In this document: in pieces, positions 1,325 to 4,142 of the stretch
How positions within the stretch are numbered: position 1 is the first letter of the stretch
Layout of the letters: each line of letters opens with the position of its first letter
From: a virus
Lineage: Duplodnaviria; Heunggongvirae; Uroviricota; Caudoviricetes
Direction: 5' to 3' (one strand)
IMG/VR virus record: IMGVR_UViG_2585427750_000005
Length of the DNA stretch: 4,289 nucleotides
Made by a program: the position numbers and the translations under genes
Notes under the pieces: generated by a model
The model's database searches: none
Seen by the model: the letters and a program-made list of their open reading frames with translations, nothing else
What the model was told of the DNA's origin: nothing

Positions 1325-1792
1325 TCATCGAAGGCATTGCGTCCTGATGTATTCCTGAAGCGTTCTCAGTGCTGTCTGGTCTCTGATAATTCCGTCCCGG
1401 ACACCGAGAACGTTTCGTCCAGCAACTGGAGAGAGTTCGACGGTGGCATCATTGCCCATGCCGGAGGCGCCGGAGGTTTCGGCTGAGGATGGCACAGGGC
1501 ATTTTCCTTTGACGAGCACCCTGCCACCATTATCAAGCTTGCGCCGAAGAGCATCATTTTCAGCTTTCGCATCAGCTAACTCCTTCGTGTATTTAGCATC
1601 GAGTGCATCAGCAGCACGCTGGCGTTGCTGCATGTCAGTAATGGTGGCGGTCGCCTGCTTCAGCTCACTGACTTTTTTATCGCGCTGCTCTTTGTAGGCG
1701 ATTGCATTATCACGGTAATGATTAACAGCCCATGACAGGCAGACGACGATGCAGATAACCAGAGCGGAAATAATCGCGGTGACTCTGCTCAT
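1325..1792 (-). CDS. Rz: Rz inner-membrane spanin (i-spanin)
   Basis: N-terminal TM anchor [30 protein letters not shown] plus coiled-coil region; the first ~85 aa closely resemble lambda Rz as recalled. Start ATG overlaps the R stop (ATGA). The C-terminal half diverges from lambda. Confidence 0.9.
1366..1572 (-). CDS. Rz1: Rz1 outer-membrane lipoprotein spanin (o-spanin), embedded in the +1 frame of Rz
   Basis: Translation [44 protein letters not shown]...: signal peptide with lipobox V-A-G-C, proline-rich mature region. SD AAGGAG 7 nt upstream of the ATG. Lies entirely inside Rz, the known lambda Rz/Rz1 architecture. Confidence 0.8.
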
Positions 1793-2265
1793 ACCTCAAT
1801 CTCTCTGACCGTTCCGCCTGCTTCTTTGAATTTTGCAATCAGGCTGTCAGCCTTATGCTCGAACTGACCATAACCAGCGCCCGGCAGTGAAGCCCAGATA
1901 TTGCTGCAACGGTCGATAGCCTGACGAATATCACCGCGATCAATCATCGGCAAAGCGCCACGCTCCTTAATCTGCTGCAATGCCACAGCATCCTGGCTTT
2001 TAGGAGAGAAGTCTTTCAGGCCAAGCTGCTTACGATATGCATCCCACCAACGGGAAAGAAGCTGGTAACGTCCGGCGGCTGTTGATTTGAGTTTTGGGTT
2101 TAGCGTGACAAGTTTGCGAGGGTGATCGGAGTAATCAGTGAATAGCTCTCCGCCAACAATGACGTCATAACCATGATTTCTGGTTTTCTGACGTCCGTTA
2201 TCAGTTCCCTCTGACCACGCCAGCATATCGAGGAACGCCTTACGTTGATTATTGATTTCCACCAT
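1789..2265 (-). CDS. R: Endolysin R (lambda-type lytic transglycosylase)
   Basis: Translation [61 protein letters not shown]... is near-identical to lambda R as recalled. The start overlaps the S 3' end by 17 nt as in lambda. SD GGAG upstream. Confidence 0.95.
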
Positions 2266-2572
2266 CTTCTACTCCGGCTTTTTTAGCAGCGAAGCGTTTG
2301 ATAAGCGAACCAATCGAGTCAGTACCGATGTAGCCGATGAACACGCTCGTTATATAAGCGAGATTGCTACTTAGTCCGGCGAAGTCGAGAAGGTCACGAA
2401 TGAACCAGGCGATAATGGCGCACATCGTTGCGTCGATTACTGTTTTTGTAAACGCACCGCCATTATATCTGCCGCGAAGGTACGCCATTGCAAACGCAAG
2501 GATTGCCCCGATGCCTTGTTCCTTTGCCGCGAGAATGGCGGCTAACAGGTCATGTTTTTCTGGCATCTTCAT
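2249..2572 (-). CDS. S: Holin S (class I, lambda-type, S107/S105 dual start)
   Basis: Translation [107 protein letters not shown] is essentially lambda S as recalled. Met1-Lys2-Met3 dual-start motif; three hydrophobic segments; charged C-terminus. Confidence 0.95.
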
Positions 2573-2592
2573 GTCTTACCCCCAATAAGGGG
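2564..2592 (-). promoter_or_regulatory. S translational-control region: dual start codons (Met1 2572-2570, Met3 2566-2564) and upstream sdi-like stem-loop
   Basis: Minus strand reads CCCC(C)-TTATT-GGGGG-TAAGAC-ATG-AAG-ATG. The G-run serving as Shine-Dalgarno sits in the 3' arm of a short hairpin (plus 2579-2592), matching the lambda sdi arrangement that sets the antiholin to holin ratio. Confidence 0.5.
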
Positions 2593-2817
2593 ATTTGCTC
2601 TATTTAATTAGGAATAAGGTCGATTACTGATAGAACAAATCCAGGCTACTGTGTTTAGTAATCAGATTTGTTCGTGACCGATATGCACGGGCAAAACGGC
2701 AGGAGGTTGTTAGCGCAGCCTCTTGCTACCCGCTTTCACGAAGGTCATGTGTAGAAGGCCGCAGCATAACTATCACTGATGAATCTAGGATAGCCAGTGG
2801 CTACGGCTCAGTTTGGG

Positions 2818-2863
2818 TTGTGGCGGCCGGAATCGAACCGGCTTCCATCGGTGCGCTGCCGAT
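2818..2863 (-). other. tRNA-like fragment (anticodon-arm-like hairpin + canonical T-arm + partial acceptor); not an intact tRNA
   Basis: Minus strand: ATCGG-CAGCGCA-CCGAT (5-bp stem, 7-nt loop), then 4 nt, then GCCGG-TTCGATT-CCGGC (canonical T-stem/T-loop with G53-C61-type closing pair), then CGCCACAACCC. The spacing matches tRNA anticodon-arm / variable loop / T-arm geometry, but no D-arm, no U33/purine-37 in the loop, no matching 5' acceptor strand and no encoded CCA could be found. Confidence 0.3.
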
Positions 2864-3020
2864 TGCAGTACGCGCGGCGGTCAGATACATGACTAGTATT
2901 TTCACTATCGCCTATCTGCTAGCTCGCCATTGAGCTTCACCACAACGATAAGAGCACTGCGCGGCACCTTTCGCCAATTCCGCGAGGTCTGCGAGTTCAA
3001 TGCTCTTACCTGTTGTGCAA

Positions 3021-3062
3021 ATAAAAAAGCCACCGTTGCAACTTAAGAGTCACTAACGGCAG
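3021..3062 (-). terminator. Candidate tR'-like promoter-proximal terminator of the late operon
   Basis: Minus strand: CTGCCGTT (17-nt loop) AACGGTGG, then C, then TTTTTT-AT. 8-bp stem with two G-U pairs and a large loop, as in lambda tR'. The downstream sequence TGCACAACAGGTAAGAGCATTGA resembles the sequence just after lambda tR' as recalled. Confidence 0.4.
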
Positions 3063-3073
3063 CTTACCTTCTA

Positions 3074-3103
3074 ATTATGGCTAAATGGCTAATTGCATGT
3101 CAA
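3074..3103 (-). promoter_or_regulatory. Candidate late promoter pR' with qut-like features (sigma70 -35 TTGACA, -10 CATAAT, tandem repeat in the spacer)
   Basis: Minus strand: TTGACA (3103-3098), 18-nt spacer, CATAAT (3079-3074). The -35 lies inside the last Q codons and the -10 just after the Q stop. The spacer contains a perfect tandem direct repeat TTAGCCAT-TTAGCCAT (plus 3077-3092). A -10-like TAAGCT lies at about +2 to +7 of the predicted transcript, a possible sigma-dependent pause element. Confidence 0.45.
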
Positions 3104-3599
3104 GGCTTTTAACAGCAACATGCTTAACTTTCTCAACACGTTTACGCATTTTGAAAGCATTTTGCATCGGCTGGTATAAAACAAATAATGACGCTTTCAG
3201 GATGTCGTCAATTTCGTTTCTACAGGTTGCCAGTGAAGGTTTTCTCCATCCCTCGCCACCACGTCCACACATCTTGCGTGGCTTTGCAGTCGCGTGATAG
3301 TAGGATGCAATTGCTCGCTTAGATGAACCATGAGCGTAGTAGCTGAGGAGGATGCCAAAGGCTTTTTTGTCAATGTACATGACGGAATCGACGACCTGAG
3401 AAATCAACATTCCATCATCATCATTGCACATTGGCCTTGTCATAACTCTTCCCGGCTCTACGCTCTCCATGAACTTCGCTATTACGCTGCTCATGCGCTT
3501 TTCCAGACGACCTGAATAAACCCATGCGCCCCACAGTTCAAGCCAGCCATTCAGCCAATCGTGCTGTTCTTTGGTGAGGTTTAGTTCTCTTATGCTCAT
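3081..3599 (-). CDS. Q: Late-gene antiterminator Q, non-lambda type (QuuD/Q21/Q82-like family)
   Basis: 172 aa. Motifs LELWGAW, RPMCNDDDGMLI and LLSYYAHGSS align with the WGAW / CCDDD / YY pattern recalled for DLP12 QuuD-type antiterminators. Sits immediately upstream of the late promoter, leader and lysis genes. SD GAGGGG; start ATG overlaps the ninH stop (ATGA). Confidence 0.8.
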   Translation of the reverse strand: MSIRELNLTKEQHDWLNGWLELWGAWVYSGRLEKRMSSVIAKFMESVEPGRVMTRPMCNDDDGMLISQVVDSVMYIDKKAFGILLSYYAHGSSKRAIASYYHATAKPRKMCGRGGEGWRKPSLATCRNEIDDILKASLFVLYQPMQNAFKMRKRVEKVKHVAVKSLDMQLAI

Positions 3600-3784
3600 C
3601 GTCTTCCCCTCTTGTCCTGTTTGACCATCAGGACGCCGTTAACTATTACGTGACGCTCGCCTTTTCTGTCTCGGTTGTACTTGAGCACTGTTCCTCTTGC
3701 GCAGGAAAGCATCCTCGCCACTTCGGTCTGATTGCCTCGTGTCTGGATAAGAAGCTCTGGTATCGTTTGAATTGTGGCGTTCAT
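3596..3784 (-). CDS. ninH: NinH-like small DNA-binding protein
   Basis: Translation MNATIQTIPELLIQTRGNQTEVARMLSCARGTVLKYNRDRKGERHVIVNGVLMV... aligns with lambda NinH as recalled (TIPDMLVEAYGNQTEVARRLKCSRGTVRKY...HAIVNDVLMV). SD GGAG 7 nt upstream. Canonical position directly before Q. Confidence 0.8.
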   Translation of the reverse strand: MNATIQTIPELLIQTRGNQTEVARMLSCARGTVLKYNRDRKGERHVIVNGVLMVKQDKRGRR

Positions 3785-4142
3785 ACGTTCTCCAGTTCGG
3801 TGATTTTATTCCAAGCCGTCCGCCTGGTACTTTCACACCACGAATTACGCGAATGTCATCGAATTGCTCGTCGTCTTCCGCAAATCCGGCGTGGATAAGG
3901 GAGTCGAGTAAACCTTTCAGGATGTTGTCGAGGTCGCGGCGGCGGGAGTCTGGAACGTCTGCGATGACTTTGATGCGGAGTCGTGATTTGGTGAAAATGT
4001 CTAACTTAAGTTGGCGGATGATTTGCTGAACGTCTTTTCGGTATTTCTGGCCTTTATCGCTGATGTAGTATTGGCTTCCCCGTCTTCGCCAGTAGGTATT
4101 CACCGACGGCGGGTATGGAAGCACAAACTGATATTCGTTCAT
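3639..4142 (-). CDS. rusA: RusA Holliday-junction resolvase, with an unusual ~45-aa C-terminal extension
   Basis: The N-terminal ~115 aa (LPYPPSVNTYW..., PDSRRRDLDNILKGLLDSLIHAGFAEDDEQFDDIRV..., GGRLGIK) align with E. coli RusA (120 aa) as recalled. The frame then stays open for ~45 more basic, low-complexity residues that overlap ninH out of frame. Strong SD GGAGG; start overlaps the stop of the upstream gene (ATGA). Confidence 0.85.
   Translation of the reverse strand: MNEYQFVLPYPPSVNTYWRRRGSQYYISDKGQKYRKDVQQIIRQLKLDIFTKSRLRIKVIADVPDSRRRDLDNILKGLLDSLIHAGFAEDDEQFDDIRVIRGVKVPGGRLGIKSPNWRTYERHNSNDTRASYPDTRQSDRSGEDAFLRKRNSAQVQPRQKRRASRNS

Follow-up and report, generated by a model that had tools for sequence, protein, structure and literature searches.

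The window analysed here, a stretch of 4,289 nucleotides from the Caudoviricetes record IMGVR_UViG_2585427750_000005, very probably carries the cassette for late-gene antitermination of a lambdoid prophage that belongs to the phage 21 family. In the mechanism that we propose, RNA polymerase-sigma70 would start constitutively at the late promoter pR', at about G3067, and sigma region 2 would then re-bind the -10-like TAAGCT (+2..+7), causing the polymerase to pause. Without Q, transcription would end at the hairpin and U-tract of tR', giving an RNA of ~45 nt (45-49). Once Q has accumulated, two protomers would occupy the subsites AATTAGCC/ATTTAGCC, an 8-bp direct repeat within the promoter spacer, the nozzle of the upstream protomer would enter the RNA-exit channel of the paused polymerase, and the Q-modified enzyme would ignore tR' and continue into S, R, Rz and the remainder of the late operon. 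In comparison with phage 21, a joint exchange would have affected the half of Q that reads DNA and the Q-binding element (QBE), producing a reader of TTAGCC (R95, A124, R127, N128) instead of the TGAGCA-reading Q21 (H95, A124, R127, R128). Evidence for this explanation comes from the anatomy of the sequence, its homology and geometry, and the covariation of Q with its site; the biochemistry and structures of phage 21 are the basis on which binding, the start site, pausing and antitermination are inferred.

Such an element would decide the timing of prophage lysis and of virion gene expression, and in relatives the same element controls the cargo located past tR', such as tRNAs or, in 21-type Stx2c phages, Shiga toxin. 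The mechanism is a textbook one and the exact sequence is already annotated, so that our analysis mainly confirms an identification made from sequence only. The clean covariation that we observed at three variable positions among the base-contacting residues of the cryo-EM structures points to a testable specificity code, and supplies a natural set of potentially orthogonal Q/QBE pairs.

Gene order around the module

The minus strand of the window runs from RusA (4142..3781) and NinH (3784..3596) through the 172-aa antiterminator Q of the Q21 family (3081..3599) and a non-coding leader of ~500 nt, between Q and S, to the lambda-type holin S (2572..2249), the endolysin R (2265..1789) and Rz (1792..1325), with a Rha-family gene last in this order after Rz. 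RusA, NinH, S, R and Rz were assigned by ORF and family match, and Q by its ORF, a PF06530 match and alignment with the Q21 structures. The control of the S-R-Rz lysis genes by the module, proposed in the preliminary description, agrees with their position past tR' on the same strand and with the homology to phage 21. An Rz1-like ORF (1366-1572, minus strand, 68 aa) is embedded out of frame in Rz and has a lipoprotein-like N-terminus; this predicted protein is the expected Rz1 spanin partner.

The cassette might be intact in sequence yet silent, the relic of a cryptic prophage, since prophage completeness is not visible from the window alone and close copies lie in many E. coli chromosomes. 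This is improbable given that the ORFs of RusA, NinH, Q, S, R and Rz are all full-length with family matches, and that the regulatory module is identical to that of Sf6, a viable phage.

The promoter and its spacer

Read on the minus strand, the module consists of TTGACA (3103..3098), TGCAATTAGCCATTTAGC, CATAAT (3079..3074), TAGAAGG, TAAGCT (3066..3061), GCCGTTAGTGACTCTTAAGTTGCAACGGTGGC and TTTTTTATTT. The hexamer TTGACA (3098..3103), inside Q codons 165-167, aligns with the annotated -35 of phage 21, and CATAAT (3074..3079) occupies the position of the annotated phage 21 -10. The promoter over the 3' end of Q that had been noticed initially was therefore found as described, on the minus strand, with an 18-nt spacer and a match to 11 of 12 consensus positions. 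It is the sole match of at least 11/12 in the window, and dinucleotide shuffles give 0.066 such matches per window. The stop codon of Q, TAG (3083..3081), falls both inside the promoter spacer and inside the second copy of a repeat.

This repeat is the perfect tandem TTAGCCAT-TTAGCCAT (3077..3092, minus strand, in the register of the preliminary description, which had placed it in the spacer), the only perfect 8+8 tandem in the window, with shuffles giving 0.076. By homology to phage 21, two putative Q-binding subsites can be drawn over it: an upstream one, QBEu (AATTAGCC, 3087..3094, core TTAGCC), homologous to ATTGAGCA of phage 21, and a downstream one, QBEd (ATTTAGCC, 3079..3086), homologous to AATGAGCA, both on the minus strand. 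QBEu overlaps the final Q codons, the upstream copy covering codons 169-172, while QBEd contains the Q stop codon and its final base is also the first base of the -10.

The predicted pause element, terminator and short RNA

A -10-like TAAGCT in the initial transcribed region had also been pointed out, and it is present on the minus strand at 3061..3066, starting 12 nt past QBEd. The transcription start would be G3067 (minus strand), 7 nt past the -10 and directly before TAAGCT, as in phage 21. With this start, TAAGCT would lie at +2..+7 as a sigma-dependent pause element identical to the SDPE of phage 21, and the C of each subsite core would lie at -21 and -13, which are the functional positions in phage 21.

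The intrinsic terminator tR' (3019..3065, minus strand) was assigned by its fold and by identity to the phage 21 terminator. Its bulged hairpin spans 3065..3027, with 17 pairs, a 4-nt loop and a G+C-rich core (3063..3029), and its pairing extends over the two leading bases of the T6 (3028..3023) of a T6-A-T3 run (3028..3019). The fold reaches -20.2 kcal/mol (z = -3.65), and none of 200 shuffles was as stable. A simple consensus terminator scan of 2500-3300 returned none, a false negative considering the folded hairpin and its U-tract; the scan probably overlooked tR' because of the one-base bulge in the stem. Folding thus bears out the expected hairpin plus T6 that would end the RNA after ~45 nt, the product from the start at G3067 being 45-49 nt. 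ARAGORN and Rfam searches found no known RNA at the pR'-tR' module.

The ~45-nt leader RNA from pR' might in addition act in trans as a small RNA in lysogens, similarly to StxS, a role that would come on top of the antitermination switch and that we consider unlikely. A promoter at 11/12 consensus should be strong, leader and terminator are shared with 100% identity by phage 21 and the otherwise mosaic window region, and StxS demonstrates that terminated pR' transcripts can be Hfq-dependent regulators, short RNAs having been reported for phages 21 and P22 as well. However, the leader RNA is nearly all hairpin, with ~5 unpaired 5' nucleotides that leave little room for a seed, pausing and termination account for its conservation, about one close relative in four carries a different leader, and the RNA matches no Rfam family. 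StxS is, like the leader RNA, a short constitutive transcript from an antiterminated late promoter in lysogens, but it is a 74-nt Hfq-binding RNA and comes from a different Q/pR' type.

Considered as the terminated product of an antitermination cassette, the leader is of ordinary length for its family. The terminated 6S RNA of lambda is ~194 nt long. Phage 21 has a leader of 47 nt with an identical pause element and terminator, the leader thus being ~45-47 nt in both, and the suggestion that the window module is unusually compact does not hold, as this is the family norm.

Q belongs to the Q21 family

The Pfam scan matched the window Q to PF06530 (E 1.3e-25), and its alignment with the Q21 structures 6JNX/6P18 is gap-free (E 2e-91), indicating a Q21-family protein and not a lambda- or Q82-type one. 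No PF03589 match was found in the Pfam scan of the window, so Q is not of the Q-lambda family, and the Q82 family (PF06323) gave no match either, the scan returning PF06530 and DUF1133 only. Of the QuuD/Q21/Q82-type assignment made initially, the Q21 part is thus supported and the Q82 part is not. Membership of P22 gp23 in this type was also considered and rejected, since it is described as lambda-type in the genome paper of phage L.

The pR'/qut region of lambda follows the same logic as the window: its late promoter fires constitutively, its QBE is placed between the -35 and the -10, the initial transcribed region contains a -10-like pause element, and Q allows the polymerase to bypass a terminator. 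Nevertheless, Q-lambda (PF03589) has a fold unrelated to that of the window Q, acts as a monomer on an asymmetric site without repeats and needs NusA, whereas the site in the window is a direct repeat.

Residues 1-102 of the window Q are ~97% identical to Q21, and residues 103-162, which comprise the loop and the recognition helix of the DNA-binding motif, are diverged. At the positions with which Q21 contacts DNA, the window Q has R95, R113, A124, R127 and N128; two base readers differ, H95 and R128 of Q21 being R95 and N128 here. The protein ends with a 10-aa C-terminal extension relative to Q21 (codons 163-172, 3081-3113, minus strand), because its ORF runs through the -35 and QBEu to the TAG inside QBEd. 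The six C-terminal residues of Q21 become ordered against the RNA polymerase alpha/beta interface, and the residues homologous to them are internal in the window Q.

Inside the Q gene we also observed a paQ-like CII-dependent antisense promoter on the plus strand (3274-3306), made of TTGCGTGGCTTTGC (ttgyN6ttgy) at 3274-3287 and TAGGAT at 3301-3306. Both parts lie at positions homologous to the annotated CII site and paQ -10 of phage 21, and are kept in spite of the diverged Q sequence around them.

The repeat lies in register with the phage 21 QBE

The genome of phage 21 (OL657228) carries a literature-based annotation of the -35, QBEu ATTGAGCA, QBEd AATGAGCA, the -10, the transcription start, the SDPE TAAGCTG, the terminator and the genes for tRNA-Asn and tRNA-Thr, and the phage 21 QBE sequence was taken from this annotation and from Shi et al. 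2019. From TAAGCT through the end of the terminator, window and phage 21 are identical base for base. Counting back from TAAGCT without gaps, AATTAGCC/ATTTAGCC (3094..3079) fall exactly on QBEu and QBEd of phage 21; in both sequences QBEd ends on the base that opens the -10, and 12 nt separate QBEd from the pause hexamer. Alignment with the annotated phage 21 late region, a check recommended at the outset, thus shows that the repeat coincides with an experimentally defined QBE. The proposal of the tandem repeat as a candidate Q-binding element is supported by this register and by the covariation described below, but by homology the subsites are in another register, AATTAGCC/ATTTAGCC, 2 nt upstream.

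In the published structures of Q21, two protomers are bound to a direct repeat of 8-bp subsites (Yin et al., bioRxiv version), in agreement with the statement in the preliminary description that non-lambda Q proteins such as Q21 bind directly repeated subsites. In the major groove, bases are read by H95, A124, R127 and R128, and R113 reads them in the minor groove (Shi et al. 2019). Q21-dependent antitermination requires the C:G pairs at -21 and -13, whose substitution impaired it (Shi et al. 2019). QBEu was described in phage 21 as a weak subsite that depends on cooperativity (Yin et al., bioRxiv version).

The phage 21 cassette (OL657228; PDB 6P18-6P1C, 6JNX/6JNY) shares with the window the Q family, an identical terminator, and order and spacing, namely a -35, two 8-bp subsites, 12 nt and TAAGCT at +2..+7. 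The subsite core differs at two positions (TTAGCC in the window, TGAGCA in phage 21), the window has an 18-nt spacer where phage 21 has 17 nt, and its -10, CATAAT, is much better than the AACACT of phage 21. The window Q is 10 aa longer than that of phage 21, continuing through the -35 and QBEu to a stop inside QBEd. Past tR', phage 21 has its tRNA-Asn and tRNA-Thr genes, while the window has another cassette.

Identity to phage 21 is distributed as a mosaic. It is ~99% over 3590..3351 (Q codons 4-83), drops to 60-80% over 3350..3067, which includes the helix-turn-[loop]-helix half of Q, the promoter and the QBE, and becomes essentially complete over 3066..3023, with the pause element and terminator; the leader past tR' (3020..2841) is unrelated. 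This profile, with its conserved flanks, suggests that the DNA-reading half of Q and its target site were exchanged as one unit.

The repeat could alternatively be incidental, a by-product of the C-terminal codons and stop of Q or of a small duplication, with the site of Q action elsewhere, for example in the initial transcribed region. In its favor, the upstream copy lies over Q codons 169-172 and the stop codon in the downstream copy. Also, the Sf6 record annotates an approximate qut at +1 to about +45, downstream of the -10, although this annotation is older than the Q21 structures. An incidental repeat is nonetheless difficult to reconcile with an exact register on the experimentally defined phage 21 QBE, and the transcribed region is identical in phage 21 and the window although the recognition helices of the two Q proteins differ. 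Together with the evidence from the family and from close relatives given in the following sections, these observations make it highly improbable.

Q residues and subsite bases covary across the family

The survey of the Q21 family was composed of three sets: 80 IMG/VR loci with Q at least 97% identical, nine divergent phages, and 49 loci from one-genome-per-species bacterial assemblies, with 45-100% identity. Subsites were anchored without using their sequence, by the self-similarity of adjacent 8-mers, a TAnnnT 12 nt downstream and a -35 2-4 nt upstream. In all 59 divergent Q21-family loci, taken from phages and from 49 bacterial genomes, we found a common layout, consisting of the -35, 2-4 nt, two 8-bp direct repeats, 12 nt and TAnnnT; one of the 59, locus L130, was re-registered by hand.

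Covariation was counted over 52 distinct combinations of DNA-binding region and QBE, a sample that includes related sequences. Asparagine at residue 128 goes with T at core position 2 (13 of 13), arginine with G (36 of 38) and lysine with T (the single case). Arginine at residue 95 is found with C at core position 6 (18/19), and histidine, isoleucine, leucine or tyrosine with A (33/33). For residue 124, all nine arginines accompany G at core position 3, and other residues accompany A in 42 of 43 combinations. R127 and the C at core position 5 are almost invariant in the family, and core position 4 of QBEu is degenerate. All four combinations of the states of residues 95 and 128 occur, each with the predicted DNA, and N and R types are interleaved within genera, for example in Proteus and Morganella. 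A Fitch count on a rough NJ tree gave at least 9, 5 and 6 state changes for residues 128, 95 and 124, respectively.

For the window Q, R95/A124/N128 predict TTAGCC, which is the repeat observed; the base-reading residues match the subsite sequence. This covariation represents strong comparative evidence that the window Q reads the repeat, although part of the conservation of QBEu could reflect coding constraint, given its overlap with the last Q codons. It also speaks against an incidental repeat, as three bases in both subsites change in step with three residues that contact DNA, and the repeat is present even in Q21-family members whose Q stops upstream of the -35. A coding artefact was rejected on these grounds, that is, the phage 21 register, the covariation and the repeats outside Q coding sequence.

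A broader reading is that the Q21 family uses a modular recognition code and that the window represents an orthogonal class (R95/A124/N128-TTAGCC) swapped in as one cassette; we regard this as somewhat more probable than its opposite, judging from comparative sequence data. The code may link residue 95 to core base 6, residue 124 to core base 3 and residue 128 to core base 2, with arginine perhaps selecting G, or G opposite a C, and the cassette may comprise the promoter, the QBE and the 3' half of Q. If this is true, Q21 should be inactive on the pR' of the window, and the window Q inactive on that of phage 21. Specificity could then be reprogrammed by one or two substitutions, opening the way to collections of mutually orthogonal antitermination switches. 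In the papers searched we did not come across the family-wide pattern of recognition at three positions, and this pattern is the only, modest addition that we make to what had been described.

Further putative QBE specificity classes were observed in Cedecea (L104), Edwardsiella hoshinae (L126) and Providencia (L123-L128). One of them combines K128 with TTATACCC/ATTTACCC (among L104, L126 and L123-L128), another Q127 with ATTGGCAC repeated twice, and a third R124 with AATGGACA-type subsites.

Close relatives vary in QBEu and exchange the leader

Among close IMG/VR relatives the module is conserved as TTGACATGCAATTA[G/T]CCATTTAGCCATAAT. The variable base is the G at 3089, in QBEu, which is T in about a quarter of the loci, changing Ala171 to Ser. 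QBEd is invariant in all 78 related IMG/VR loci that yielded the module, so that, of the two subsites, QBEu alone is polymorphic among close relatives. This fits the published role of QBEu as weak and dependent on cooperativity, and the degeneracy of core position 4 in the family.

About 20 of the 80 close relatives (HK629 type) have a different leader starting right after CATAAT. It resembles that of a Hafnia phage and keeps the 12-nt spacing with the hexamer TATGCT; a separate terminator and a gene for an HNH endonuclease come with it. This replacement of the leader with Q kept suggests that the Q-specific part lies upstream of the -10, and that the pause and terminator part is interchangeable. 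For a Q site in the initial transcribed region, such a wholesale swap of that region in HK629-type relatives with an unchanged Q is a further difficulty.

In these loci (among them L021, at 1700-2480, L015, L025 and L029) and in phage HK629, a module of ~700 bp is inserted between CATAAT and the 21-type TAAGCT. The HNH endonuclease ORF of the inserted module lies at 1914-2426 in L021, and the inserted leader matches the leader of Hafnia phage yong1. Since this module has its own terminator, two leader terminators stand in series behind one QBE and promoter.

The same switch in phages L, Sf6 and HK75

The same element had already been described in phages L, Sf6 and HK75, P22-like and HK97-like phages with the same Q type, and the module is thus a known one. 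Their Q proteins are 98-99% identical, that of phage L being 98.8% identical to the window Q. The pR'/QBE/SDPE/tR' sequence of Sf6 is identical to that of the window, while a single base in QBEu (AATTATCC) distinguishes HK75 and L from it. The switch is essentially the same in all three as in the window and the flanks differ, with nin genes upstream and tRNA genes or a structured leader downstream. In the records of Sf6 and HK75, the region is annotated with pR', qut and tR' on the basis of homology to phage 21. The genome paper of phage L (2021) gives AATTATCC/ATTTAGCC as the probable QBE, with a late start ~15 bp downstream of it, and reports that the segment contacting DNA lies in the part of Q that diverges from residue 94 on, and that contact residues differ. 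No base-level start of pR' is given in the BTP1 transcriptome paper.

A structured leader past tR'

In place of the tRNA-Asn and tRNA-Thr of phages 21 and Sf6, the window has a structured element on the minus strand (3010..2815), composed of a strong hairpin (3010..2947) followed by a cloverleaf-like fold (dG -82.4, z -3.4). GUUGUGGUG/CGCCACAAC close the cloverleaf-like fold, in which GCCGGUUCGAUUCCGGC resembles a T-arm. ARAGORN reported no tRNA in it at default settings and, when these were relaxed, only a weak "tRNA-Ala with a 38-nt insert", and the sole Rfam hit in the window is a weak, 20-bit tmRNA-like T-arm at 2815-2873. The region carries no annotation in RefSeq E. coli or in HK75. The element could be a decayed or interrupted tRNA, or else an undescribed processing element of the late transcript. 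Related loci keep its 5' 87 nt and 3' ~31 nt around unrelated interiors of ~95 or 195 nt.
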